A stretch of DNA of 29,839 nucleotides, from UHGV virus genome UHGV-0042155; one strand, 5' to 3'. This stretch comes from a virus. Numbering within the stretch: the first letter of the stretch is position 1; each line of letters begins with the position of its first letter. Positions 1-20,344 of the stretch are shown here, one piece after another. The translations under genes were made by a program, and so were the position numbers. Under the pieces are notes generated by a model that was given only the letters and a program-made list of their open reading frames with translations, did not search any database and was not told the DNA's origin.

Positions 1-1
1 A

Positions 2-1522
2 TACACTAAATCAGTAAGTTGGCACCATTACCTACCAAGTGGAGGCAAATTTGCCATTGATCTTTTTAGACAAGATCCAAGTCAGTATAAAACTGAGCTC
101 CGCCAACAACTGCGATTAGTGGATTCACGCTCACCTTACGCCAATGATTGGCTACCTCAGGGGTATGCTGATAAAAGCATTTATGCTTTTGGACGTAACG
201 AGTTTTCCAGTATTATTGAATCATCTATCGAATATAAACGTGAAGAAATAATTCGCCGTCTAAATCGTTTTGATCAAGAGTGTGATGATGCCCTATTAAC
301 TCTAGGAATTGATAAGGCCATATTAGAAAATTTATTTTCAGAGTTAACAGGACATGTCATTGGTGAGCGTCTGTATACACATGATATTCGTCTTAACGAG
401 TTACTAGCCAGAGATGTTAGGTTATTCGAGTCTGAATATTACTCTGCTATGTTGGACGTAGTACGAGAATCAGATAACAATGATGATTTAAAAAGGTACG
501 TCATATCATTTTTACAATTATTGGTCGGTGCACACGGACAATCTCTTGTTCAACGCCTAAACCAAGAGTTATTTGAGGCTGCACCGGATGATTTACCCAT
601 CTTCGATGATATTACCGGTATGTTCCGTCTGGAGTTTAATCGCATTGGTTCGACAGCTTTGGAACTATTGCTGGAAGAAAATAGAAATTTCAATATTGAT
701 GAGGATGCAACAGCTCTTACACTTTTCTGTGCTATAGCCCAAAAAGTATTAGAGAATCTGTTCACTACAGTACTCGACTACCAGAAATTGATAGATGACC
801 ATTTCCGATATCTCTTCTCACCTTCCACAGAATGGGCTAAATTTACTCGGATGGTTATTTTCCTCAAGATCGCACGCGATTATATTAGTTCCCAGGCACC
901 ATCTATCGAAGATCTTCCCGATCATGGCTATTATCATGACTTAGCTACATTTGATGGTGATCTAACAATTTCAGCCATTGGTACGGCTAATTATAACAGC
1001 CTTCTGGCAGAGGTTTTCCGTGGTATGAATATAGAATTACCACAAATTATTCACCTGAACGGCAGTGTACACGACTATTATAACCCTTATAAAAATGCGG
1101 TTATTACTTGTGAAAATCCAGATAACGTAGACCAACGTCAGATTCATGTTCCATTCATGCTGACGCAAAGCGGTCTTAAGCCTTTAACATCAGTAACTAT
1201 GTCAAGACGATACGTTAGTCTTTTTGATGCTTATGCTGAATCTGATGCTATTGTTGTTGTAGGTTTTGGATTTAATAAAGATGATAGCCATATTAATGGA
1301 CTTTTCCGTGAACTGGTCGAAAATAAAGGACGGAAATTAATTCTTATTTCGAGGCGTGTGGATGGAAGTGTTGAAGAACAGAAACGGCGGTTGCGAAACA
1401 AACTGCGTATTTCGCATGAGTTTAACCATTTGCTAATAGTAATTCCAGTAGATGATCTCACAAGGTGTCAAGGTGACCGACTATGGTTAGAGCAAGTTGT
1501 TGATACTTTGAACGAGGGATAA
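2..1522 (+). CDS. 5'-truncated cargo ORF of the island; hypothetical protein with C-terminal Rossmann-like motifs
   Basis: The reading frame of ORF 119..1522 stays open with no stop codon back to base 2, and the annotated start at 119 is GTG with no Shine-Dalgarno, so the gene most likely begins left of the window. AT-rich. C-terminal motifs TANYN...HLNGS...VVVGFGFNKDD loosely resemble the SIR2-like TTNYD/HLHG/GYSxxD pattern, but no GAGxS motif is visible. Confidence 0.55.
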   Translation, partial: YTKSVSWHHYLPSGGKFAIDLFRQDPSQYKTELRQQLRLVDSRSPYANDWLPQGYADKSIYAFGRNEFSSIIESSIEYKREEIIRRLNRFDQECDDALLTLGIDKAILENLFSELTGHVIGERLYTHDIRLNELLARDVRLFESEYYSAMLDVVRESDNNDDLKRYVISFLQLLVGAHGQSLVQRLNQELFEAAPDDLPIFDDITGMFRLEFNRIGSTALELLLEENRNFNIDEDATALTLFCAIAQKVLENLFTTVLDYQKLIDDHFRYLFSPSTEWAKFTRMVIFLKIARDYISSQAPSIEDLPDHGYYHDLATFDGDLTISAIGTANYNSLLAEVFRGMNIELPQIIHLNGSVHDYYNPYKNAVITCENPDNVDQRQIHVPFMLTQSGLKPLTSVTMSRRYVSLFDAYAESDAIVVVGFGFNKDDSHINGLFRELVENKGRKLILISRRVDGSVEEQKRRLRNKLRISHEFNHLLIVIPVDDLTRCQGDRLWLEQVVDTLNEG

Positions 1523-1611
1523 AGCAGCTGATGATGGTGCTATAACCATTATGGTTTCTATTAATACTCGCCAGCCCTTATCTCTCTGATAAGGGCCCTA
1601 ATTAATGCTAG

Positions 1612-2235
1612 TTAATTATTACTACACCCAAACGATCTATAACCGTCATCAAAGTTCTTGCTTTTCACTTTGGTGAGATAATCAATTCGATTCAGTAAAT
1701 CGTCGGGATAAATATCATTAAGAATATCATCACGATTCAGGGTATATTTACCATTAGAAGGATACTGTACTAGGTGCTGTCCCTCTTCGGGAGTTATACT
1801 TAATGCGCTGCACCATGCCGAGGTGATCATAGTTCTTAACGTATCTTCATCAAGATTGAAATCCCCTAAGTGGTAGTAAGCATCCTTGTTCAGAAACAGA
1901 AATACGTGAAAATGACGCTTACCATTCTGGGTAAATTCCCTCACCCACGCATAGCGGAGCGTATTCGGGTGTACCCGTTTACCTTCTTTACGCTTGCGCT
2001 GTTCATCTGCTGCCAGTTTGGCTTTCAGTGAATTGGTAAATCTTGATATAGATCCTGAATCAGTATTAGCGATACAGGAAATAGTATCACCATTATCCAG
2101 CATAACCGGGTCATGCAGATCCACCCGTATTGCCAGTGTACGTCCGTGTTCTTTAACAGATTTTGTAATAACATCGATAATCCTTTCTTTGTATGATTTA
2201 ACATGACTGCCATACTCGCTATCGTAGATATTCAT
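1612..2235 (-). CDS. inovirus Gp2-like / YfjJ-family protein
   Basis: 207-aa ORF with the motif RYAWVREFTQNGKRHFHVFLFLNKDAY typical of the YagK/YfjJ (inovirus Gp2-like) family; lies next to the YfjI-like gene as in CP4-57. Confidence 0.75.
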   Translation of the reverse strand: MNIYDSEYGSHVKSYKERIIDVITKSVKEHGRTLAIRVDLHDPVMLDNGDTISCIANTDSGSISRFTNSLKAKLAADEQRKRKEGKRVHPNTLRYAWVREFTQNGKRHFHVFLFLNKDAYYHLGDFNLDEDTLRTMITSAWCSALSITPEEGQHLVQYPSNGKYTLNRDDILNDIYPDDLLNRIDYLTKVKSKNFDDGYRSFGCSNN

Positions 2236-2459
2236 AATAATTCACCCCTCGATGGATAACAGTCATCGCATTACTGGCTATGGCCTACTAGTGATATATA
2301 TACAGGCATGGTTAATTGCAATATAATAACTATCCGACACTGAATTTTAGAAAAATAGTAGCCACAGCCTACGATGACTGATTGAAAGTTACTCTTTAAT
2401 TAGTTGTAATGAAGATAGGTTAATAAAACAATTATTGCGTCCTATCTTTGTTCTGTTCG

Positions 2460-3872
2460 TTATATAAGAATATCAACAGGTTGTATGAAAATGGTTTTCC
2501 CTATCTTCTCCGCCCGTATTTTCTTTTGCGAATAAAGTGTACTGAGAAGCTCATTCGCTTTGCTCCGATTCCTGAACCGGTTCGGACCATATTGCAAGAT
2601 GGTTGTCTTCCTGATATATGGCACCACACACCGGTAGCAATAATCTTTTATCCACGAATAAAGTTCATCTGCTTCTGAACTAACCAACAGCAACGTCTGG
2701 GGTTTAGAGAAAATTCTCACATACTCATCCACATACCAGGCGCTTATCTCTACTGCGGCTTCTACGGCACTGAGGGGTATATCCCCTTCATCACCATTAA
2801 ATTTATGCAGCAGAGCGGCAATCCTTGCCATATTTTCCGCCATTTTAGAGGCGTAATCCTTAAAGCCAGACAGGAAGCCAATCAACCCCATTTCTGACTC
2901 GACCTTGTTATAAAATTCGATCCAGTTCTTTTCGGCTTCTGCAGAGAAACGTAGGCACTGACGCGCATTTTCATCATTTCTGACAATGCTCTCGTTAACG
3001 ATCTCCATCAATCGTTTATGAAATACCGGTAGATGCTCGCTTGATATAACCGGGCTGGTAATTTGTCTGTAACCCTGTGTTGAACTAGGCTGACACATCA
3101 AACACCGCGCGAAGAATCCGATCCCTTTCGCTGTATCGCCTTTACGCTCCAGATACCCTTTTTTGAACACATCAGGCTGAACCATCAACGACAGTGTCAT
3201 TCTGGCGTCTTTGATTAATTTATCTGGCTCGCTTTTTCTTTCCACAGTAAACATTGCGCCATCCCACATTTTATTGATGAAAGGCAGTTCATTCAGCGCA
3301 TAGCCGTTAAAAATGGTACCAGCTTCATCAGACATAAGCCCGATGGACCGCCAACAACCACTGAGATAGTCTTTTATCGCCGCTGGTGTGGCATCATTGA
3401 ATATCTGCCTGAACCTGACCGGTGCTTTCGGGTTCGCCGACAGCAGCATTTTCAGCCGTTCATTCGTTGTGGAGTGATCTTTGTTACGGCGAATATCTGA
3501 TTTCAGTTTTGATATCAGGGCTTTCTTTTCAATGTTAAAAGTCGTTTCCTCATTCCGCCAGATAATTAAATCTTGGGTATATTTTTCAAAGCATGCTTCT
3601 TCCAGTTGATACAATGGCTTCATTAGCAGTTTGTCCACCGTGCTTTTGCGTTCACCAGAATCCGCCAGTGTCAGTAAAAAAAGTGATACTGGGCTGCGCA
3701 GATTATTCAGTCGGCACACATCAATCCGGTTCTGGCAGGCAAGCGAAATAACCCCCAACACCGATGCAGCAATCAAAGCCTGGGGTGCCTGCGTATGCTG
3801 TTCCACTTCATAAACCGCATTTCTGATGATCTGCGGGAAGACATGTACAGGGAAAGGACGACCACACGACAT
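2460..3872 (-). CDS. DUF3987-family (YfjI-like) protein
   Basis: 470-aa ORF of the size, strand and position of YfjI, immediately downstream of alpA in a CP4-57-like arrangement. Confidence 0.75.
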   Translation of the reverse strand: MSCGRPFPVHVFPQIIRNAVYEVEQHTQAPQALIAASVLGVISLACQNRIDVCRLNNLRSPVSLFLLTLADSGERKSTVDKLLMKPLYQLEEACFEKYTQDLIIWRNEETTFNIEKKALISKLKSDIRRNKDHSTTNERLKMLLSANPKAPVRFRQIFNDATPAAIKDYLSGCWRSIGLMSDEAGTIFNGYALNELPFINKMWDGAMFTVERKSEPDKLIKDARMTLSLMVQPDVFKKGYLERKGDTAKGIGFFARCLMCQPSSTQGYRQITSPVISSEHLPVFHKRLMEIVNESIVRNDENARQCLRFSAEAEKNWIEFYNKVESEMGLIGFLSGFKDYASKMAENMARIAALLHKFNGDEGDIPLSAVEAAVEISAWYVDEYVRIFSKPQTLLLVSSEADELYSWIKDYCYRCVVPYIRKTTILQYGPNRFRNRSKANELLSTLYSQKKIRAEKIGKTIFIQPVDILI

Positions 3873-4002
3873 AGATACCTCTCATTCTATTAATTTAATA
3901 AATAATTCAGCGAAATGGCTATTCTGCTATTAATAGCGGAAATAGCAGGATGACTACCGACAATCCGATGACAGCAATTGAGTATGAATTCATGTAGCAT
4001 CC

Positions 4003-4215
4003 TCAAATAAGTTTGCTGCGTTGCGATAGCCATTCTTCAATCTCTGATTCAACCCATCCAACAGATTTCACTCCGAGCATTCGCTTTTTGGGGAAGGAAG
4101 CATCGTAACGTGGTGATTTGGGGTTCAACCAATCGTAGATTGTTGCTCGTGCCATACCAGTTTTTTGGATAACAGCAGGTAAGCGGAGTATCCTAACGGT
4201 TGATGGATTATTCAT
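4003..4215 (-). CDS. alpA: AlpA-family phage transcriptional regulator
   Basis: 70-aa ORF MNNPSTVRILRLPAVIQKTGMARATIYDWLNPKSPRYDASFPKKRMLGVKSVGW..., near-identical to E. coli AlpA as recalled. Confidence 0.9.
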   Translation of the reverse strand: MNNPSTVRILRLPAVIQKTGMARATIYDWLNPKSPRYDASFPKKRMLGVKSVGWVESEIEEWLSQRSKLI

Positions 4216-4340
4216 GCTTGATTGCCTCTTATTAGTTCATTTTGGTTGTAGAAAGATTAGCGGCAAGCATCAATGCAAAAAATCCGTGTACCAAAAAAAC
4301 ATTTTTTACAACACTTAACTAATTGATATTTGGTGTATTT

Positions 4341-5219
4341 ATGTTGTCAGCGATTGAGTTTTGCGAAGAAATTAGTCAAAAATCGGATTGGCTTGCTGGG
4401 CATATGGTCGAATGTGATTGGGACATATATGTTGATCTGCTCAGCGAAAGGTATCCCGTGATACAGAAGGAACTAAGCGAGATGCGAGATCAATTCTGGA
4501 ATTCTGATAAGGTAGGAACACGTGTGATTTTGTACAGTGATCCATCTCGTAAGGAGTATAAATATTGTACTGTTGACGGAGTGGAGCAATTAAAAGAAGA
4601 ATATACAGAAGTATATGATCCAGCTCAGGAATGCTGGAAACAGTTAAAATCACGTATTTTCAGGGAAACGTTTTGTCATCTTATTCAGGATGATTTTTTA
4701 ATTAATGATGTGTTTAAGTCACATCTATTTTTTGCCTCAATGTCTTATCAATGGGCAAAATCAGTTATGTCGGAGAATGAATGTGTCGCTATTAAAGCGT
4801 TCATTAAGTCAGCTGAATTATTTGATAGATGTATTGGTATGTCATGGTTTCATGTTTCTGTATGTACCCAAAAAAAATTATCACATGTTAGAGCTAAGGC
4901 CGGAAAACAAGGTGGGAACAGTAAATCAGAGGTATATCGAATAATTCAAGATAAGCTTGTTTATTTGATCAATAACTCCGTACCTGAAGGTGGGTGGAAA
5001 AGTAAAGCAGCTGCGGTGAATGACCTCATTGACCCCTTATGGAAATTTGTCGAAGAGTCAAATTTTGAAATTAATAATCAAAGTAAAAAATATCGGATAT
5101 CAACAATGAGCCCTGATGCATTGGCAGATACCATTATAAAAAACTGGTCAAGAAATATTGAGAGTATCAAATTGGCTTTCGATAATACGGTTACTAGAAA
5201 AAAGAAAACCAAAGGGTAA
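4341..5219 (+). CDS. hypothetical AT-rich orphan protein at the intA-alpA position (yfjH-equivalent locus)
   Basis: Long ORF convergent with intA; the track start at 4323 is TTG, the first ATG is 4341. Low GC relative to flanks. No recognisable motif. Confidence 0.55.
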   Translation: MLSAIEFCEEISQKSDWLAGHMVECDWDIYVDLLSERYPVIQKELSEMRDQFWNSDKVGTRVILYSDPSRKEYKYCTVDGVEQLKEEYTEVYDPAQECWKQLKSRIFRETFCHLIQDDFLINDVFKSHLFFASMSYQWAKSVMSENECVAIKAFIKSAELFDRCIGMSWFHVSVCTQKKLSHVRAKAGKQGGNSKSEVYRIIQDKLVYLINNSVPEGGWKSKAAAVNDLIDPLWKFVEESNFEINNQSKKYRISTMSPDALADTIIKNWSRNIESIKLAFDNTVTRKKKTKG

Positions 5220-5277
5220 AATTCCGTATTACCTATAGGTGAGTTATCAGCACCCATTATGGGTGCTGATAAAGGAT

Positions 5278-6519
5278 TCATCCTACAAGACGTATTCCCC
5301 TAACCCCACTATTCACGATACTGCCGCTATCTGCTGCTTTAACAAAATCAGCCCACCACTGCATCATCGGTCGTCGTTGCTCAAGATAGTCACTTCGATT
5401 GTAAGCGCGACGTACCTCATTCTTATCTACATGAGCAAGTGCAGCCTCAATAACATCAGGCGGAAATCCTTCCTCATTGAGTGCCGTACTGGCAATAGAA
5501 CGTAAGCCGTGTGAAACGAGTACGCCTCCTAAACCAGCACGCTTAAGGGCTGCATTTACTGTCTGGCTGTTCATAGGCTGGGTAGGCTTAATGCGACTGG
5601 GAAAGATAAATTCTCGACCACCGCTGAGAGACTTCATTATTTCCAGAATAGCGAGAGCTCCATCAGATAATGGAACCGTATGCTCCCGATTCATCTTCAT
5701 TCGAGCAGCTGGAATTTTCCATTCGCTAGCATCGAAATCGATCTCATCCCATCGAGCCTCAGCAGCTTCGGCAGGGCGGGTGATGGTGAGAAGCTGCCAC
5801 ATGAACAGGCATCGTGTGGACAGGCTGATACTTGCCGTACGCATAGTCTGCATTAGCTGTGGAAGTTGACCTGGGTGGATGCTTGGCATGTTTTTCTTTT
5901 GCGGTTTCTCGAATGCTTTCCCGATGTTTACGCTGGGAACCGCATCAATCAGGCCTGTGTTCTGCGCATAAATCATGACTTCGTTAATACGCTGACAAAG
6001 GCGGCGGACTGTCTCTAATGCACCTCTGGCCTGAACCGGATGAACTGCTTTAACCAAAGTATGAGCCTTAATCTCAGTGACACTGATATCACCGATTGCC
6101 GGGAGAACATCCCTCTCAAGCGAGCGCCAGATATCGTCGGCATAGTCCTCTGTTACGCTGGCTTTCTTCACATTCCACCAACGCTCGGCAACTAACCGGA
6201 AAGTGTTGGTTTTGGCCTCTTGAGAATTTCTCACCTGTTCTTTCTGATGTTCCTGAGGATCAATGTCTTTCGCCAACAAAACTCGAGATTCAGCTCTGAG
6301 TTTACGCGCATCAGAAAGGGAGACGGCTGGATAGGCTCCGAAGCTCTGCTTGGTTCGCTGCTTGGTCAGAGGTCGATAGTAACGGAACTGCCAGAGCTTA
6401 CTACCGCTGGACTTGATTAGCAGAGTAAGCCCGTCACCATCATACAGCTGGTAATCGGCATCTTTAGGTTTGGCGGCTTTGATTTCCGTATCGGTTAACG
6501 GCTTGGTTTTTCTTGCCAT
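5278..6519 (-). CDS. intA: P4-type tyrosine integrase (CP4-57 IntA-like)
   Basis: 413-aa ORF MARKTKPLTDTEIKAAKPKDADYQLYDGDGLTLLIKSSGSKLWQFRYY...; length and N-terminus match CP4-57 IntA; sits next to the tmRNA 3'-end fragment. Confidence 0.9.
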   Translation of the reverse strand: MARKTKPLTDTEIKAAKPKDADYQLYDGDGLTLLIKSSGSKLWQFRYYRPLTKQRTKQSFGAYPAVSLSDARKLRAESRVLLAKDIDPQEHQKEQVRNSQEAKTNTFRLVAERWWNVKKASVTEDYADDIWRSLERDVLPAIGDISVTEIKAHTLVKAVHPVQARGALETVRRLCQRINEVMIYAQNTGLIDAVPSVNIGKAFEKPQKKNMPSIHPGQLPQLMQTMRTASISLSTRCLFMWQLLTITRPAEAAEARWDEIDFDASEWKIPAARMKMNREHTVPLSDGALAILEIMKSLSGGREFIFPSRIKPTQPMNSQTVNAALKRAGLGGVLVSHGLRSIASTALNEEGFPPDVIEAALAHVDKNEVRRAYNRSDYLEQRRPMMQWWADFVKAADSGSIVNSGVRGIRLVG

Positions 6520-6543
6520 GGGGAGTCTCCATGCGTTTAGGCC

Positions 6544-6641: not shown

Positions 6642-6714
6642 GGGCCTATCAATGGGCCTAAAAGGTTCGGATTTAATTAGTTCTCTTCGGACTTCGCGGG
6701 ACAAATTCAGGGCA

Positions 6715-6747
6715 CAAAAAAGCCCGCAGGGCTTGCGCCGTGCGGGC
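6715..6747 (-). terminator. rho-independent terminator downstream of the tmRNA 3'-end fragment
   Basis: Stem agcccgca (6720-6727) pairs with tgcgggct (6740-6747); a T-run follows on the minus strand (plus-strand A-run 6715-6720). Confidence 0.6.
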
Positions 6748-6794
6748 TCTTAGGACTTCATCGGATGACTCTGGTAATCACCGATGGAGAATTT

Positions 6795-6828
6795 TGGTGG
6801 AGCTGGCGGGAGTTGAACCCGTGTCCGA
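6795..6828 (-). other. tmRNA (ssrA) 3'-terminal fragment; attachment core shared by the two elements
   Basis: Minus-strand sequence TTCGGACACGGGTTCAACTCCCGCCAGCTCCACCA matches the T-arm, acceptor 3' strand and CCA end of enterobacterial tmRNA; sequence further 5' (6829 onward) does not look like tmRNA body. Confidence 0.7.
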
Positions 6829-6953
6829 ATAATGCTTAACCTATTGAATATTAATGTTTTGTCTTTTTTGAAAGGCCTCAAGTGCATTTTACGTGCATAT
6901 CGTGGTCCCTCTAACGTCCTGATTCCGTCCAACATTTTGAAATACTCACGACG

Positions 6954-8126
6954 CTACAGAGCTGCTGAAATGGCGGTTTTCCCGTCGTATTCAGCCAGGT
7001 ATTTACCGTAATTGCGGAACAGCATTTCCGGCCCTTTATGCCCCATCTGCCCGGCAAGCCAGAAAAGGTTTACGCCCTGGCTAATGTGTCTGGTGGCGAA
7101 TGTGTGGCGGGTCTGGTACGGGTTACGGTATCGAACGCCAGCTTTTTTGAGGGTTGGCACCCATGCTTTTTTTCGTATTGCGTCGGCGTTCGCCCAGGGC
7201 TCTCCCGTTTTAGGGTCGCTGAAAATAAACTCGCTTTTCATGAAAGTGAATTGTTTCTGCGCCTGCAGCGCGGCCAGCGCCTCGCTGTTTAATTCTACTT
7301 TACGGGTACCGGCTTTTGTTTTGGTGCCTTTCAGAACGCCAACAACACTCGCCGCCTGAACGTGAGCTGTTTTAGCGATATTGTCGAGATCAGGCCAGCG
7401 CAACGCACACAGCTCAGAGCTGCGTAAACCTGTATTGAATGCGAAACGGAACAGGTTTTCCCATTCCGGATAACTGCAGCTCTGGTAAATGGCGCTGATT
7501 TCCGCTGGTGTGAACGGATCAACTTCGTAATCGTCACTATTCGGGCTGCTGTCGATCACGTGGTACCGACTCGCGCTGACAAGGGTTACCGGGTTGATAG
7601 TCAGCAGGCCGTCTGTCACCGCTTCATCTATGGCGCTGCGCAGAAACGAGAGGTTATTCCTGATTGTTTTCAGCTTTGTTTTTCTGCTGGCGATCCAGTT
7701 TTTGAGGACCGCAGGGGTCAGTTCCGATACATGCATTTTGTGCAGCGCAGATAGCGCAGACAGGCACTTTTCATAACCGCCAATAGTGGACGGCGAAAGG
7801 TTGCGGTTCTGGCAGATTTTCAGATACTCGTCCAGGTAGGACTTAATATTTTTGGTTTTCTTCACTACCCCGAACAGCTCCAGTTTTTTGGAGGTGGGGA
7901 AGTATTTCGCATAATCGAATGTGCCGCCGGCGATCTGATTCTGTATCTCCCCCAGCAGGCGCTCGGCATACTTCACGCCGCGCGCGTTTGCTTCCATTCT
8001 GGAAAGGGGCTCCCGGCAGAGAACCCCCTTGTAGGTGAATGTGATCACCAGGGTGTCGCCAGTTTTATGCTGGCGAATGGTTACTCCTCTTGGGAGAGAT
8101 AATGATCCTTGTTCTTTCTTGCCCAC
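6954..8126 (-). CDS. lambdoid-phage tyrosine integrase
   Basis: 390-aa ORF with an N-terminal arm-binding-like region and C-terminal catalytic region (R...HTFATRH...Y); transcribed toward the att core, overlapped at its 5' end by xis. Confidence 0.9.
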   Translation of the reverse strand: MGKKEQGSLSLPRGVTIRQHKTGDTLVITFTYKGVLCREPLSRMEANARGVKYAERLLGEIQNQIAGGTFDYAKYFPTSKKLELFGVVKKTKNIKSYLDEYLKICQNRNLSPSTIGGYEKCLSALSALHKMHVSELTPAVLKNWIASRKTKLKTIRNNLSFLRSAIDEAVTDGLLTINPVTLVSASRYHVIDSSPNSDDYEVDPFTPAEISAIYQSCSYPEWENLFRFAFNTGLRSSELCALRWPDLDNIAKTAHVQAASVVGVLKGTKTKAGTRKVELNSEALAALQAQKQFTFMKSEFIFSDPKTGEPWANADAIRKKAWVPTLKKAGVRYRNPYQTRHTFATRHISQGVNLFWLAGQMGHKGPEMLFRNYGKYLAEYDGKTAISAAL

Positions 8127-9299: not shown

Positions 9300-9535
9300 G
9301 AATGCTCCTGCGTGATGGCCGCTGTTTTCTTAGCATGTTCGACCAGCTCTGCCACAAGCTCATCAACCAGCAGCTTTCCGCTTTCAGTCAGGTATTCGCC
9401 ATGACCATTCACATCAACTGCATTCCGGTACAAATCGCGGATAGCTTTATCGCCTGCCACCGGGCCATGCTCACTTCGCGCCATTTTTTCAAACCGGCAC
9501 AGAAGCCCGTCGAATAAAATCTCGGTCAGCTCCAT
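9296..9535 (-). CDS. hypothetical protein (79 aa)
   Basis: Internal start MELTEILFDG... chosen; the start is uncertain. Confidence 0.45.
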   Translation of the reverse strand: MELTEILFDGLLCRFEKMARSEHGPVAGDKAIRDLYRNAVDVNGHGEYLTESGKLLVDELVAELVEHAKKTAAITQEHS

Positions 9536-9638
9536 GGTCGTTATTCCGCCTTTCGGAAGAGTAATAACAATGCAGGTTGTGCCTGTTTTACGTTGGTGGC
9601 GTAATAACGCTGCCTTTAAAATTCGGCGGCGGTAGGTT

Positions 9639-9842
9639 TCAATTACGTTGTTTTTCACGACGTTCAAACTCCGAATCCATCCACATTGAGACCTGAGCCG
9701 ACAAGTCAAGGCAGAGGCCAGACAGGGAAATTATTTGCTCGATATCCATATCAATAATATTGGAGTTGATTAACTCCATTAATTGATAAAGGTTATCTGC
9801 TGTATTTTTTGCGGTTTCTAGAGAACTGTCTCTACTGAGCAT
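9639..9842 (-). CDS. hypothetical small protein (67 aa)
   Basis: ORF in the early-left operon orientation. Confidence 0.45.
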   Translation of the reverse strand: MLSRDSSLETAKNTADNLYQLMELINSNIIDMDIEQIISLSGLCLDLSAQVSMWMDSEFERREKQRN

Positions 9843-9978
9843 ATTCAGACTCCGTAAGCTTTACGCATGAAAAGGTCAGATATATGGCGGTACTCGTCGC
9901 CATAGACCATAAAGAAAAGACATGCTGTTTTGTATGCCGCTTTATCGATTAACATTTACTTACCCATTTAAAAGTTGG

Positions 9979-10638
9979 TTAACGTGGTTGAGTAAATCGC
10001 TGTTGCATTCCCGCTATTTTTTTCATCAGGCCTGCATGTAGTAGTGGGTGAATCTCATCACATGTGGGCTTCCAGTCCTTAGCCTGTTGCATCTTGGCTG
10101 TGTGCCAGGCTAAGTGGGCTTCCTGTGTGGTGTTGAAAAGCCCAAGGTGTGAAATCTTTCCGTTTACGTTGATTCGTGCCCGAAACTTAGCGGACTGTTT
10201 ATGCCAGATAACACCCTGTGGGTATTTCCCTCGTAAACGGGCGCGATCACCTGTAAATAAGTTAAGTGCTGGGGGAACAAATACGCAGTATTCAGGACCA
10301 TATATCTTGTTACCATGGTGTAGCAGGTCCTTATCTAGCACATATCCATCGCGATAGTTTTCTTTCCAGAACGCCAGAAAGTTTGAGAATCGCAGCCACT
10401 CATCGGCAACAGTACATCCGGCGTAACTGTGCTCTAACTGTTCTGTGTGCGGTTTGTAGCAGCGAGATAACATGCCGCTCCAACGACGGTGAGCGCTGTG
10501 GTGGCACATTATTCCGTCGATGATAATAGTGCTGGGGAATTCTACGTCATAATGACCAACACCATACTCCAGGCTTTTTAAATGCCTACGCCGCGAAACT
10601 TTTGATTCAAGAAGACTATCTATTTCAGATTGGTTCAT
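9979..10638 (-). CDS. AP2-domain phage protein (HNH-endonuclease-associated family)
   Basis: GVIWHKQSAKFRARINVNGKISHLGLFNTTQEAHLAWH is a clear AP2 DNA-binding motif; Cys/His-rich N-terminal region. Confidence 0.75.
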   Translation of the reverse strand: MNQSEIDSLLESKVSRRRHLKSLEYGVGHYDVEFPSTIIIDGIMCHHSAHRRWSGMLSRCYKPHTEQLEHSYAGCTVADEWLRFSNFLAFWKENYRDGYVLDKDLLHHGNKIYGPEYCVFVPPALNLFTGDRARLRGKYPQGVIWHKQSAKFRARINVNGKISHLGLFNTTQEAHLAWHTAKMQQAKDWKPTCDEIHPLLHAGLMKKIAGMQQRFTQPR

Positions 10639-10707
10639 TTCAATCTCCTCTGAAATTTGGTTGCACGTATCCCCACCAGGGATGGTGTGATTTAAACTAC
10701 CTATTAA

Positions 10708-11127
10708 TTAATTTAATTTTATTTCGATGCTTTTCAGTAATTCATGTACCTTAATGGTATTATCGAAAATAAGTGATGCCATCAGGCAATCAGCGTCATC
10801 ACTGTCTTTTCCTGAAAAATATGATTCGTTATATACGTGAGCCAGTTCCCTGAGTTTTGCAGCGCTGACTGTGGCATAAAAAATATCATCGGCAATATCA
10901 TCTCTATTCCCGATGGGGGGGTTAACTGTCTTTGCAGTATTTGCTAACTCTTCGATGTATGCGTAAGCTGTTTCACGGGTTTTATCGAAAGAGCGAATGA
11001 GGCAGGCTAAGCCGCAATCAGTTTCCTCGTTCATTTCTTCGGTGTTTCTATAAATCATTTCCAGAAGAGTATTGCCTTCGGAAATCTGAGCGACGATATC
11101 ATGAAGCATGTCTAATGGAGTTTTCAT
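10708..11127 (-). CDS. acidic hypothetical protein (139 aa), second gene of an AT-rich two-gene operon
   Basis: About 19% Asp+Glu, net charge roughly -13. Its ATG immediately follows the TAA of the upstream gene (TAAATG). Markedly lower GC than the surrounding phage genes. Confidence 0.65.
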   Translation of the reverse strand: MKTPLDMLHDIVAQISEGNTLLEMIYRNTEEMNEETDCGLACLIRSFDKTRETAYAYIEELANTAKTVNPPIGNRDDIADDIFYATVSAAKLRELAHVYNESYFSGKDSDDADCLMASLIFDNTIKVHELLKSIEIKLN

Positions 11128-11340
11128 TTATTCATTCTCCGGCCAATCATAACCAAGTTCATGGTTTAGAACAGAAAGATTATCCCTTAACTGATTGATA
11201 CAAATTTTAATGAGTGCCGCTGGTTTATATGCAACATCTGGATCTGATTCTGCGTACTCAAGCGCATTGATTACACGATCAATATCCATCGCAATTTTGT
11301 GGACAGTTCCGTTCTCGGAAAGCATTTTCTCTACATTCAT
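11128..11340 (-). CDS. acidic hypothetical protein (70 aa), first gene of the pL transcript
   Basis: First ATG (11340) has a GGAG Shine-Dalgarno; the track's TTG start at 11400 would run through the promoter and operator. Acidic and AT-rich. Confidence 0.6.
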   Translation of the reverse strand: MNVEKMLSENGTVHKIAMDIDRVINALEYAESDPDVAYKPAALIKICINQLRDNLSVLNHELGYDWPENE

Positions 11341-11371
11341 TTCATAGGCTCCGTTGTCTGCTGATGAAGTG

Positions 11372-11400
11372 AATTTAGCAAAATGGTAAAAGCCATGCAA
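11372..11400 (-). promoter_or_regulatory. putative pL promoter with overlapping repressor operator
   Basis: Minus strand reads TTGCAT-N17-TAAATT. The 17-mer at 11374-11390 (tttagcaaaatggtaaa) matches the OR site at 12238-12254 at 15 of 17 positions with both half-sites identical. Confidence 0.5.
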
Positions 11401-11483
11401 ATGATAAATGCTAAATTATTTACTTTTTCTTTTATGTATTTGATAAATAATATAATTATTTATTATTATTCTTCGGTGGGCAT

Positions 11484-11511
11484 AAAAAAACCCACCATCA
11501 GGTCGGGTGGG
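11484..11511 (-). terminator. rho-independent terminator downstream of cI
   Basis: Stem cccacc (11491-11496) / ggtggg (11506-11511) followed on the minus strand by a T7 run (plus-strand A-run 11484-11490). Confidence 0.6.
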
Positions 11512-11529
11512 GGGGGGTAAAGATGGGGG

Positions 11530-17991: not shown

Positions 17992-18068
17992 GGCCCTTTA
18001 GCTCAGTTGGTTAGAGCGTGCGACTCATAATCGCCCGGTCGCTGGTTCAAGTCCAGCAAGGGCCACCA
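17992..18068 (+). tRNA. tRNA with CAU anticodon (Ile2/lysidine-type or Met)
   Basis: Cloverleaf read by hand: acceptor ggccctt/aagggcc, D arm gctc...gagc, anticodon loop ctCATaa, T arm gctgg-ttcaagt-ccagc, encoded CCA; resembles enterobacterial tRNA-Ile2. Confidence 0.85.
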
Positions 18069-18070
18069 GA

Positions 18071-18144
18071 CCGCCACTAGCTCATCGGGAAGAGCGGCAA
18101 CCCAGGTGTTGTGGTACGGGGTTCGAGGCTCCGGTGGCGGACCA
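18071..18144 (+). tRNA. tRNA-like gene with non-canonical 6-nt anticodon loop (possible pseudogene)
   Basis: Good acceptor (ccgccac/gtggcgg), D arm and T arm and an encoded CCA, but the best anticodon fold is gcaac-ccaggt-gttgt with a 6-nt loop. Confidence 0.5.
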
Positions 18145-18146
18145 CT

Positions 18147-18222
<76 letters not shown>

Positions 18223-18225
18223 TAT

Positions 18226-18300
<75 letters not shown>

Positions 18301-18680
18301 GTTTAAGCTTTTCGGTCTGCGATGATGGGTTCCCCGGAGTGACTGGAAAGCGACCTGGTTTTGAATGGGCGCTGCTTTTTGCAAAATTGCTGTGTGAAAA
18401 TACTGACCTTTGGGTTCAGCGCTCATCCAAAAGCATCACGTGAATTCACCAACGCTCATGTACTCTCCAGGAAACAATAAGTGATTCTGAAAAGTTCCGG
18501 TTAGATATTGCCCCGGTCACCGGATGATTTTATCTTTTGGTTCGTGGTGAATCCCCCTATGCGGCGGGGCGTCCAGTCAAACTTTTTTGTCCAGGTTTGT
18601 TTGCGCGGAACTAGTCGGCTGGGGCTGTTCCACCGGGAGGCACCCGGCGCCACCTCCTTGACGGTATTGTTATTTTTCAT

Positions 18681-18707
18681 GCCTGTTCGTCCGAGCAGGC
18701 TTTTTTT
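18681..18707 (+). terminator. strong rho-independent terminator
   Basis: 8-bp stem (18681-18688 with 18693-18700) followed by TTTTTTT at 18701-18707. Confidence 0.6.
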
Positions 18708-18738
18708 GCCCGCATTATCTTCATTGAAAACTGGCAAC

Positions 18739-19117: not shown

Positions 19118-19441
19118 ATGAAAATGCCATACAAACAAGATTTCATCGCTGCGCTACTTGCCGCCAAGGAGCAGGGTATTGGTGCAATGCTGGCTTTTAT
19201 CATGGCGTATCTGCGTGGTCGCTATAACGGCGGCGCGGTAACAAAAACGCTAATTGATGCGCTGATGTGCGCGATGATTGCCTGGTTCGTTCGTGACCTT
19301 CTGGACTTTATCGGCCTGAGCAGCAACCTCGCCTACATAGCCAGCGTCTTTATTGGATACATCGGCACCGATTCGATCGGCAATCTTATTAAAAAACTTG
19401 CAGCAAAAAAGGCGGGAGTTGACGATGCAAACCAGTCCTGA
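19118..19441 (+). CDS. S: lambda S-type holin
   Basis: [40 protein letters not shown]... closely matches lambda S including the Met-Lys-Met dual start; the track start at 19109 is GTG. Confidence 0.9.
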
Positions 19442-19874
19442 CGGAATTGCTCTGATAAAAAAATTTGAAGGTTGTCGGCTGACTGCTTACCCCGACCCCG
19501 GAACGGGAGATGCGCCGTGGACCATCGGCTATGGCTGGACCCATCCGGTTGACGGAAAGCCAGTAAAGCGCGGTATGACTATCGACCAGCAAACCGCTGA
19601 CAGGCTTCTGAAAACAGGGCTTGTTGGTTATGAGAATGACGTGCTGAAAGTTGTCAGGGTGAAGCTGACACAAGGCCAGTTCGACGCACTGGTGTCGTTC
19701 GCTTACAACGTTGGGTCGCGTGCTCTTTCCACATCTACACTGCTGAAAAAGCTGAATGCTGGCGATATAAAAGGCGCGGCAGATGAATTTCTGCGCTGGA
19801 ATAAATCAGGCGGAAAGGTGATGCCGGGGCTCACGAATCGCCGCAAGGCAGAGCGAGCTCTGTTCCTGTCATGA
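19425..19874 (+). CDS. endolysin, T4/P22-type lysozyme (not lambda R transglycosylase type)
   Basis: [33 protein letters not shown]...[12 protein letters not shown] lysozyme motifs; start overlaps the holin 3' end; GGAG Shine-Dalgarno. Confidence 0.85.
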
Positions 19875-20344
19875 TTAGCGCACTGGTTAAGCGTTACTGG
19901 CTGCAGTTGCTGGTGCTGGCGTTAATCGGCGCACTGGCTTTCTTCGTGAACCACTACCGCGACAACGCCATCACTTACAGAGACCAGCGCGATAAAGCCA
20001 CAAAGAACCTCCGCCTGGCTAATGCCACCATCAAAGATATGCAGACCCGCCAGCGTGATGTCGCTGCACTGGATGCCAAATACACGAAGGAATTGTCCGA
20101 TGCGAAAAAGACCATTAACGATTTGCGTCGTGATGTCGATTCTGGCGCTAAACGGCTGCGCATCGCCGCAACCTGCCCTGGAGTGCCAAAAGCCACCTCC
20201 TCCACCGGCGTGGATGATGCAGGAGTCCCCGAACTTACTCCAGACGCTCGACGGAATTATTTCGATCACCGGGACGGAATCGCAACCGCTGACAAAATGA
20301 TTCGCGGCATGCAGGACTACATCAAAGAGCAGTGTCTTAAGTGA
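19871..20344 (+). CDS. Rz: Rz i-spanin
   Basis: N-terminal TM segment then coiled-coil-like region; start overlaps the lysozyme stop; Rz1 is embedded in the +1 frame. Confidence 0.85.
20100..20300 (+). CDS. Rz1: Rz1 o-spanin lipoprotein, embedded in Rz
   Basis: [20 protein letters not shown] signal peptide with lipobox Cys, and the proline-rich [11 protein letters not shown] motif also seen in lambda Rz1. Confidence 0.7.

Follow-up and report, generated by a model that had tools for sequence, protein, structure and literature searches.

We examined the gene at the left end of a 29,839-nucleotide stretch of DNA, the viral genome entry UHGV-0042155 (the window, by which we mean the whole stretch), which is 100% identical to the chromosome of Escherichia coli MS 115-1 (NZ_CP146665.1, from position 1163651). 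The gene is a member of a conserved SIR2-fold family of the SIR2_2, or “SIRim”, type, and the best explanation of the evidence as a whole, to which we give a probability of about 0.6, is that the MS 115-1 copy is a pseudogene, cut by insertion sequence IS1, of a candidate defence effector that would use nicotinamide adenine dinucleotide (NAD+) and is linked to restriction-modification (R-M). It is cargo of a genomic island, located beyond a backbone of yfjJ-, yfjI-, alpA- and intA-type genes, as a reading of the window from its letters (the sequence-only reading) had proposed and as the locus annotation confirmed. The change of strand between backbone and cargo, noted in the same reading, is real, but the accompanying shift in GC content is only slight (0.38-0.40 across the SIR2-like gene vs 0.36-0.46 in the adjoining backbone).

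The sequence-only reading had also described a frame open to base 2 and cut by the window edge, with 467 aa visible. Indeed, 506 sense codons run from base 2 to the stop at 1520-1522 without an internal stop, far beyond chance in DNA of 38-40% GC, and the earliest possible start in this frame, a GTG at 119, yields 467 aa. The truncation itself, however, is not an artefact of the window edge, since the first 32 bases are an IS1 terminal inverted repeat (Table 1) and 16 codons are missing from the real gene. In the MS 115-1 locus as extended to the left of the window (L001, in which position 20032 corresponds to window base 32), the 23-nt inverted-repeat arms of IS1 occupy 19265-19287 and 20010-20032, are 87% complementary and span 768 bp, and an IS1 family transposase is annotated at 19280-19977 on the minus strand, just left of the window. 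IS1 sequence makes up the open frame's first 10 “codons”, no ATG, GTG or TTG precedes base 119 in frame, the upstream frame meets a stop inside IS1, and all intact homologues can be aligned from window base 33 or 35 only. The IS1 copy has no target-site duplication, its 9-bp flanks (tcagtactc and taccaagtg) being different. To the left of IS1, the complete chromosome contains tRNA-Ile, an amylase pseudogene and glaH; this left flank is the conserved ileY region, which in an island-free strain is followed by ypjCB-ypjA-ssrA.

Intact homologues are 512 aa in length, and the MS 115-1 copy is without 16 of their codons. The intact orthologue from E. coli FCI51 (L002, 11952-13490; 512 aa; WP_210172630.1) displays 95.0% nucleotide identity and has the N-terminus MNLGFFFGAGAEIGYGLPSGG, and that from Escherichia sp. 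ESNIH1 displays 95.1%, with the protein sequence of the window copy resuming at LPSGG. The 16 missing codons include the start codon and, according to the secondary structure in the AlphaFold2 model, encode strand beta-1 and the Rossmann-fold glycine loop; of the family positions that they cover, eight are invariant and two nearly so, G8-A-G10-A-E12 among them. The sequence-only reading had found no GAGxS motif; the intact homologues carry an invariant GAGAE at residues 8-12, which IS1 removed from the window copy. Any product initiated at GTG 119 would be shorter than the intact protein by at least 45 N-terminal residues. Neither a stop nor a frameshift interrupts the 495 codons left intact, which differ from the ESNIH1 orthologue at 3 non-synonymous sites, and the ratio of non-synonymous to synonymous substitution rates (dN/dS) of the window frame is 0.028-0.059 against four orthologues; these low values denote strong purifying selection, represent past selection on the family and fit a recent truncation. 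Given that transcription of the IS1 transposase points away from the remnant, that a scan revealed no promoter-like site upstream of base 119, and that no Shine-Dalgarno-like sequence precedes GTG 119, the MS 115-1 copy is most likely a silent pseudogene.

Comparison with sister islands shows what surrounded the gene. A mod/res pair is located upstream of it in FCI51, four other E. coli, Escherichia sp. ESNIH1, Rahnella, Serratia and Apirhabdus, with mod coding for a 720-aa N6/N4 methyltransferase (PADLOC MTase_III, E 2e-297) and res for an 857-aa ResIII/DEAD helicase with weak REase_III matches. The mod-res-gene array is the cargo of a CP4-57-like island, in the slot flanked by a YkfA-type GTPase gene on one side and the yfjJ/yfjI/alpA/intA backbone on the other. 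ESNIH1 matches the window over 33-3951 at 95.1%, and Mangrovibacter over 33-6543 at 93.4%. The MS 115-1 chromosome holds a decayed copy of this island type: the locus is without the mod/res pair, ypjA/ypjC and the island's distal half, so that the remainder of a system, which the sequence-only reading had thought might lie outside the window, is not there. In view of the differing flanks and of IS1 abutting the ileY region, the simplest history would be an IS1 insertion into the gene followed by an adjacent deletion, which would have taken codons 1-16, the promoter, the type III-like mod/res pair, ypjC/ypjA and the distal half of the CP4-57-like island. In Mangrovibacter plantisponsor (L008, approximately 9500-11521), the same island retains res only as its last 99 codons and a SIR2-like gene that aligns from residue 6 only, which suggests independent cargo decay.

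Assignment to SIR2, which the sequence-only reading had made from weak motifs, was borne out, albeit at borderline sequence scores. The only family matched was Pfam SIR2_2 (PF13289), which gave 22.5 bits (E 1.3e-4) with the full-length protein against a gathering cut-off of 24.5, and 25.6 bits with an artificial core construct devoid of the insert described below; all 11 core constructs match, the best with E 6.3e-7, and a precomputed PF13289 match exists for a few natural homologues. The PADLOC SIR2 models, which provided the only other sequence matches, yielded weak and partial domain matches (best 24.6 bits, residues 418-484). No system model in PADLOC v2, including the “PDC” embedded candidates, was matched, and neither was any specific NCBIfam model, with SIR2_antiphage scoring 13.6 bits against a cut-off of 500. 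Searches of all PDB sequences with the family profile hidden Markov model and with the insert-less core returned chance matches only and no SIR2 match at E<1, and the assignment therefore rests on fold comparison together with the Pfam and PADLOC domain models. The AlphaFold2 model of the protein (pLDDT, from the predicted local distance difference test, 82.5; predicted template modelling score, pTM, 0.77) has the Rossmann-type alpha/beta core of the SIR2/sirtuin superfamily, with a helical module inserted after beta-1. Its best structural matches are antiphage SIR2 proteins, and the best Foldseek match is the SIR2 subunit of SIR2-HerA. The list of SIR2-likeness, in which the figures stand without a heading, reads PsSIR2 15.7, SIR2 of SIR2-HerA 14.1 and 13.1, Af Sir2 13.3, KomC 13.0, ThsA 12.3, SirTM 12.0, SIRT1 11.9, FAM118B 10.6, and Avs5 10.6 and 10.4.

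Conservation was assessed in alignments of 38 close homologues and of 24 distant members reaching 21% identity. The motifs TANYN, HLNGS and GFGFNKDD do occur in the SIR2-like order that the sequence-only reading had given them. Asn336 corresponds to the catalytic Asn that sirtuins have in TQN(I)D or TTNYD (N112 in ThsA, N99 in Sir2Tm), and GFGFNKDD lies within the regions matched by Pfam SIR2_2 and PADLOC SIR2. Asn359, in turn, occupies the position of the sirtuin catalytic His (H152 in ThsA, H116 in Sir2Tm), so that this His is not kept, as had been noticed from the window; in the hhalign register the Asn is invariant in close and distant members alike, and the His-to-Asn change is therefore a defining trait of the family and not a sign of decay. 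We considered H357 of HLNG as a substitute catalytic His and rejected it, as it is not conserved in distant members. The glycine-rich NAD loop is present in the family as the invariant GAGAE, with Glu replacing the Ser of GAGxS. An hhalign comparison of the core with Thermotoga Sir2 placed GAGAE on GAGIS, TAN336 on TQN99 and HLN359G on ELH116G (with weak statistics, E 0.022). Overall, GAGxE, TxNY, LNG, Q395 and G427 are invariant down to 21% identity, and the invariant positions include E12, Y317, P390, Q395 and K399-P400, for which no counterpart can be named. The family alignment contains no conserved Cys, and the zinc-binding Cys4 module of deacylase sirtuins is missing; where canonical sirtuins have the zinc module there is the family-specific VPFxLTQSGLKP segment, with pLDDT <50 at residues 395-402. 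The helical insert holds motifs invariant among the close homologues (LVGAHGQ, APDDxPIFDD, VLDYQxLIDxHFRY, EWAKF and GYYHD), of which Tyr266 of DYQ and Tyr316/317 are the only insert residues kept in distant members. AlphaFold2 modelling of the insert alone (11 sequences) was poor, with pLDDT 60.4, and was not used for fold search.

The family is sizeable, and none of Pfam, NCBIfam and PADLOC v2 holds a curated model for it. A word-indexed protein search yielded 621 homologues, mostly of about 510 aa and named “hypothetical”, and a profile scan of 1.84 billion cluster representatives yielded 756 at E 1e-3 or better, 124 of them at 1e-30 or better. With a single genome sampled for each species, 40 loci were obtained; they belong to Gammaproteobacteria, Bacteroidota, Verrucomicrobiota and Ignavibacteria, as well as to metagenome-assembled genomes assigned to Bacillota and Thermodesulfobacteriota, and members reside on plasmids of Lactococcus, Enterococcus, Bacillus, Exiguobacterium and Acinetobacter. 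We found no homologues in 50,697 phage genomes and no family member among the viral structures of BFVD, where the only weak matches were viral sirtuins. Literature searches returned nothing on the family within the library covered, and no name for it was met with, very recent naming elsewhere being possible.

To characterize the surroundings, neighbouring genes were clustered, the clusters were identified with Pfam, and R-M genes were counted within 6 kb. R-M genes are present at 24 of the 40 loci, and at 20 of the 25 with at least 4 kb on both flanks; 19 of the 40 have two or more type I components, and another 5 have a type III-like pair. The usual order, on one strand, is (half-hsdS)-[Bro-N]-hsdM-hsdS-GENE-[RhuM]-hsdR-YgjP peptidase, and at most type I loci the SIR2-like gene is nested and co-oriented between hsdS and hsdR. 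The gene directly upstream is hsdS at 14 loci, where it shares the strand of the SIR2-like gene and the two are separated by -10 to +26 bp; in Acinetobacter the order is hsdM-hsdS-DUF6161-GENE-hsdR-YgjP. The hsdS-hsdR slot often accommodates RhuM, Fic/DOC, Bro-N and DUF6161 passengers side by side (L007, L012, L016, L036, L038, L020, L045-L050), and type I operons with this slot behave as small multi-gene defence hotspots. On two lactococcal plasmids, the gene, with 34% identity to the E. coli protein, is found 45 bp past an orphan hsdS (L. lactis pAH1-5, L058 4735-7476; L. cremoris pGR0507-29, L059 5867-8476). The two genes seem to move together as a module, and their adjacency hints at a specific link of the SIR2-like gene to the specificity subunit.

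Other contexts are also represented. On metagenome contigs L051-L056 (P0076) the gene is carried as cargo by a type I-F CRISPR-associated Tn7-like element (TniQ-Csy2-Csy3-Csy4), in the company of an ABC-3C system (CTD10/MC6/DUF2326) and a DEAD/MZB helicase of 2079 aa, while elsewhere the neighbours include PglZ/BrxL (BREX), HerA with a kinase, a PIN protein, DUF6602 and an Hjc-like nuclease. The family is also found as a lone gene with no adjacent R-M. Of 5,426 complete E. coli genomes, about 395 have the mod/res pair and 5 the mod-res-gene array. E. coli E1 (L043, 9944-10678) has, past a mod/res pair that shares 99% identity with the FCI51 pair, an unrelated hypothetical protein of 244 aa in place of the SIR2-like gene, indicating that the position past res is a variable slot. 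These counts, together with the one strain carrying another third gene, make the gene an optional, modular add-on to R-M cassettes and not a subunit. A third subunit of the type III-like system was considered and rejected, as mod/res is about 80 times commoner without the gene; the SIR2-like protein is similar to neither Mod nor Res. The multi-gene requirement, which the sequence-only reading had thought possible, likewise does not hold, since members occur alone and about 390 E. coli genomes have mod/res without the gene.

Judging from its sequence features and by analogy with known systems, we lean towards regarding the intact protein as a second-line defence effector that uses NAD+, by hydrolysis or ADP-ribosyl transfer, with the insert as a sensor or regulator. 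It would be a stand-alone NAD+-using effector, keeping the glycine loop and the catalytic Asn, and its helical insert of about 300 aa may sense or regulate. The chemistry could be NAD+ hydrolysis or, because an invariant Asn stands in place of the catalytic His, ADP-ribosyl transfer as in SirTM, a protein ADP-ribosyltransferase and not a deacylase, in which Gln137 takes the place of the catalytic His (PMC4518038). As the gene is co-oriented and tightly spaced in R-M operons, it may be co-expressed with R-M. The second-line role is suggested by the slot it shares with PrrC and by the defence record of embedded genes. The type I R-M enzyme linked to PrrC holds it silent, and a phage anti-restriction peptide activates it (PMC2610378); guilt-by-embedding has predicted defence systems that were later confirmed, most R-M-embedded genes tested having proved to be defence genes (10.1101/2024.01.29.577857), and genes within type I R-M, BREX and similar systems have turned out more than once to be defence systems, TgvAB being one of them (PMC11411939). 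Defence would be of the abortive-infection type, possibly triggered, as with PrrC, by a phage that disables restriction. A more specific version, for which the PrrC analogy is the guide and which we hold to be doubtful, would make the family a new His-less sirtuin class (GAGxE, TxNY, LNG) and the SIR2 counterpart of PrrC: the protein would be held inactive by, or co-regulated with, an HsdS-containing R-M complex, be switched on by a phage neutralising restriction (for example by Ocr, ArdA or Stp-like factors), and then ADP-ribosylate a target or deplete NAD+, thereby aborting the infection.

Several observations weigh against an NAD+-using, R-M-linked effector. NAD+-hydrolysing (NADase) activity of ThsA needs both N112 and H152 (10.1101/2024.09.18.613514), and NAD+ processing by FAM118 needs both Asn and His (PMC12700824); this His is absent here and the glycine loop ends in Glu instead of Ser, so that the protein is possibly non-catalytic or has another ligand. 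The equivalence of N359 with the His itself comes from the low-probability hhalign alignment, with its E of 0.022, and from the register of the Pfam match. For a phage sensor, an identity of about 49-60% between phyla is unusually high; housekeeping genes adjoin the family member at some loci (Akkermansia L042; L030 with ffh; L037 with trpE); and the occurrence of the same E. coli mod/res pair without the SIR2-like gene in about 390 genomes makes any coupling to R-M optional.

These points lead to the principal rival, a catalytically inactive SIR2-like module that binds NAD+, ADP-ribose or another nucleotide and regulates the linked R-M system as a sensor or scaffold, for instance in restriction alleviation or assembly, with no NAD+ consumption. 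Such a role would agree with Asn for the catalytic His in every aligned member and Glu for the GAGxS serine, with the very constant position directly past hsdS, even past an orphan plasmid hsdS, and with the very high conservation expected of a partner of conserved cellular proteins. We nevertheless think it unlikely, because Asn336 and the glycine loop are invariant at 21% identity, which is more typical of an enzyme, because the adjacent R-M is of type I, type III-like or missing, leaving no single conserved partner, and because SirTM is a robust enzyme without the His (PMC4518038). Less probable still is a role outside defence, as a selfish addiction or stabilisation module, or as a housekeeping sirtuin-like deacylase, hitch-hiking with mobile R-M cassettes. 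The gene does travel on islands, plasmids and Tn7-like elements, and has metabolic neighbours at a few loci, but it possesses neither the Zn-Cys4 module nor the catalytic His on which deacylation depends (PMC4518038), its closest structural matches are antiphage SIR2 proteins, R-M is adjacent at 80% of the well-flanked loci with ABC-3C, BREX or PIN neighbours elsewhere, and R-M-embedded genes have mostly turned out to act in defence when tested (10.1101/2024.01.29.577857).

Two further alternatives concern the MS 115-1 copy itself. It is very improbable that the remnant is still expressed and functional, from GTG 119 or a fortuitous promoter, for example as a truncated regulatory or dominant-negative protein. 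While the 495 codons are free of lesions, with so few non-synonymous differences from ESNIH1, and a coding sequence is called there by the Prokaryotic Genome Annotation Pipeline (PGAP), a recent deletion would likewise leave an intact-looking remainder, the product would be without beta-1, the invariant GAGAE loop and about 30 further conserved residues, and neither a Shine-Dalgarno sequence, nor a promoter-like site, nor transcription from the transposase would serve it. An intact gene cut by the window edge only, with the other genes of its system just to the left, would account for the frame being open to base 2 and could appeal to the mod and res genes upstream in the sister islands; this is refuted by the MS 115-1 chromosome, where IS1 lies directly to the left and is succeeded by tRNA-Ile, the amylase pseudogene and glaH, and by the IS1 repeat at window 1-32, from which the frame runs to a stop inside IS1 without a start codon, unless the deposited assembly is wrong at the IS1 junction. 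An IS1-cut pseudogene of a candidate NAD+-using effector is thus the reading that we prefer.

Table 1. Features of the SIR2-like gene remnant and its immediate surroundings (window coordinates; residues numbered as in the intact 512-aa protein; invariance refers to the 38 close and 24 distant members)
Feature	Position	Strand	Remarks
IS1 terminal inverted repeat, insA-proximal end	1..32	.	outside the gene; IS1 body directly left of the window
SIR2-like gene remnant	33..1522	+	last two bases of codon 17, codons 18-512, stop; from homology to intact genes
Mostly helical insertion, ~300 aa	41..958	+	residues 20-325; between beta-1 and the TxNY strand; AlphaFold2
PGAP coding sequence WP_064717033.1, 467 aa, “hypothetical protein”	119..1522	+	begins at first in-frame GTG
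GTANYN motif	980..997	+	Asn336 at 989-991; N336 and Y337 invariant
HLNGS motif	1052..1066	+	Asn359 at 1058-1060; N359 and G360 invariant
VPFxLTQSGLKPLTSVxMSRRYV segment	1148..1216	+	family-specific, nearly invariant (P390, Q395, K399, P400); alignments
GFGFNKDD motif	1262..1285	+	corresponds to the GySxxD strand-loop of SIR2_2; G427 invariant, D434 nearly so
GC-rich hairpin, 9-bp, no T-run	1574..1596	.	minimum free energy -15.2 kcal/mol; z-score -3.5

Beyond the remnant, the hairpin listed last in Table 1 sits in the 89-bp gap between the convergent SIR2-like and yfjJ-like (inovirus Gp2 family) genes and may be a bidirectional terminator; a terminator scan found no canonical terminator and did not call it. 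Between alpA and intA, a 298-aa open reading frame (4323-5219, plus strand; PGAP 292-aa hypothetical protein WP_000947284.1) runs on the strand opposite to the backbone, lies where the GC content of the region is lowest (0.35) and has no PADLOC match; it could represent a second, small cargo gene of this island. At the junction of the island integrase intA and a second, prophage integrase there is a partial match to the transfer-messenger RNA (tmRNA) gene ssrA (6795-7100, minus strand; 32.6 bits vs the Rfam gathering threshold of 47; model positions 82-374), and neither ARAGORN nor a scan at the gathering threshold found a complete tmRNA in the window. A nearby segment of 188 bp (6642-6829) is 98.4% identical in the Apirhabdus and Mangrovibacter islands, and both segments are probably ssrA-derived attachment-site remnants of two tandemly integrated elements. 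The rest of the window, from about 6880 to 29839, is a prophage with integrase, S24 repressor, antiterminator, holin/lysozyme and terminase genes, a tRNA cluster (17992-18300) and an STnc100 small RNA (18519-18711); ARAGORN also reported a “tRNA-???” with a two-base anticodon at 18071-18144, which was not confirmed by Rfam.

The result for the window is mainly a correction: what looked like an edge-truncated cargo gene is an IS1-generated pseudogene whose R-M partners have been deleted, an instance of island decay of the ordinary kind, in a strain that is in wide use for work on defence systems. The family is of interest for its approximately 750 representatives in several phyla, its strong conservation, its fixed position in the PrrC slot and its active site in which Asn is always found. 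Should it prove active, the R-M-embedded second-line defences, a small set, would gain a sirtuin-fold effector, and a second His-less sirtuin chemistry would join that of SirTM, which is to our knowledge the one described sirtuin class without the catalytic His.

Comparison with known SIR2-based systems covered the partners and domains of SIR2-HerA (HerA), Thoeris (ThsB-TIR and SLOG), pAgo-SIR2/SPARSA (short prokaryotic Argonaute, pAgo), Avs5 (STAND NTPase), DSR (the DSR C-terminal domain) and Kongming (KomA/KomB), none of which was found as such a partner among the family neighbours; these are instead R-M genes, RhuM, Fic, Bro-N, DUF6161, ABC-3C and others. SIR2-HerA (Nezha; PDB 8w9l, 8yhx, 8j4u, 8sub) is known next to R-M in S. 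thermophilus, but the present family has no adjacent HerA partner, a HerA gene occurring near one member in about 50 loci (L025, two genes upstream), and it differs from the SIR2 of SIR2-HerA by the helical insert of about 300 aa and by Asn in place of the catalytic His. In contrast to ThsA of Thoeris, it possesses no SLOG or Macro sensor domain and no ThsB/TIR partner, and has Asn at the His position; in contrast to DSR1/DSR2 (SIR2_2, “SIRim”), it is devoid of the long C-terminal domain of DSR proteins. SirTM (class M, PDB 5a3a), by analogy with which Asn359 may act in the role of Gln137, is a protein of about 290 aa whose gene shares an oxidative-stress operon, without R-M linkage, with those of a macrodomain and GcvH-L/LplA2. 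The likeness to PrrC/RloC lies in the organization, a single co-oriented gene nested in type I R-M operons with hsdS on one side and hsdR on the other; neither fold nor chemistry is related, since PrrC/RloC combine an ABC ATPase with a tRNA nuclease while this family has the SIR2 fold, and, unlike PrrC/RloC, it also follows type III-like res genes or stands alone. The family shows the trait of R-M-embedded accessory genes of the PrrC/RloC/TgvAB/BrxU type, which the window copy, its R-M partners having been deleted, no longer does. SIR2-based defence effectors and R-M-embedded defence genes are both already known kinds, and the family is an undescribed variant: His-less, R-M-linked, stand-alone and endowed with a giant insert.

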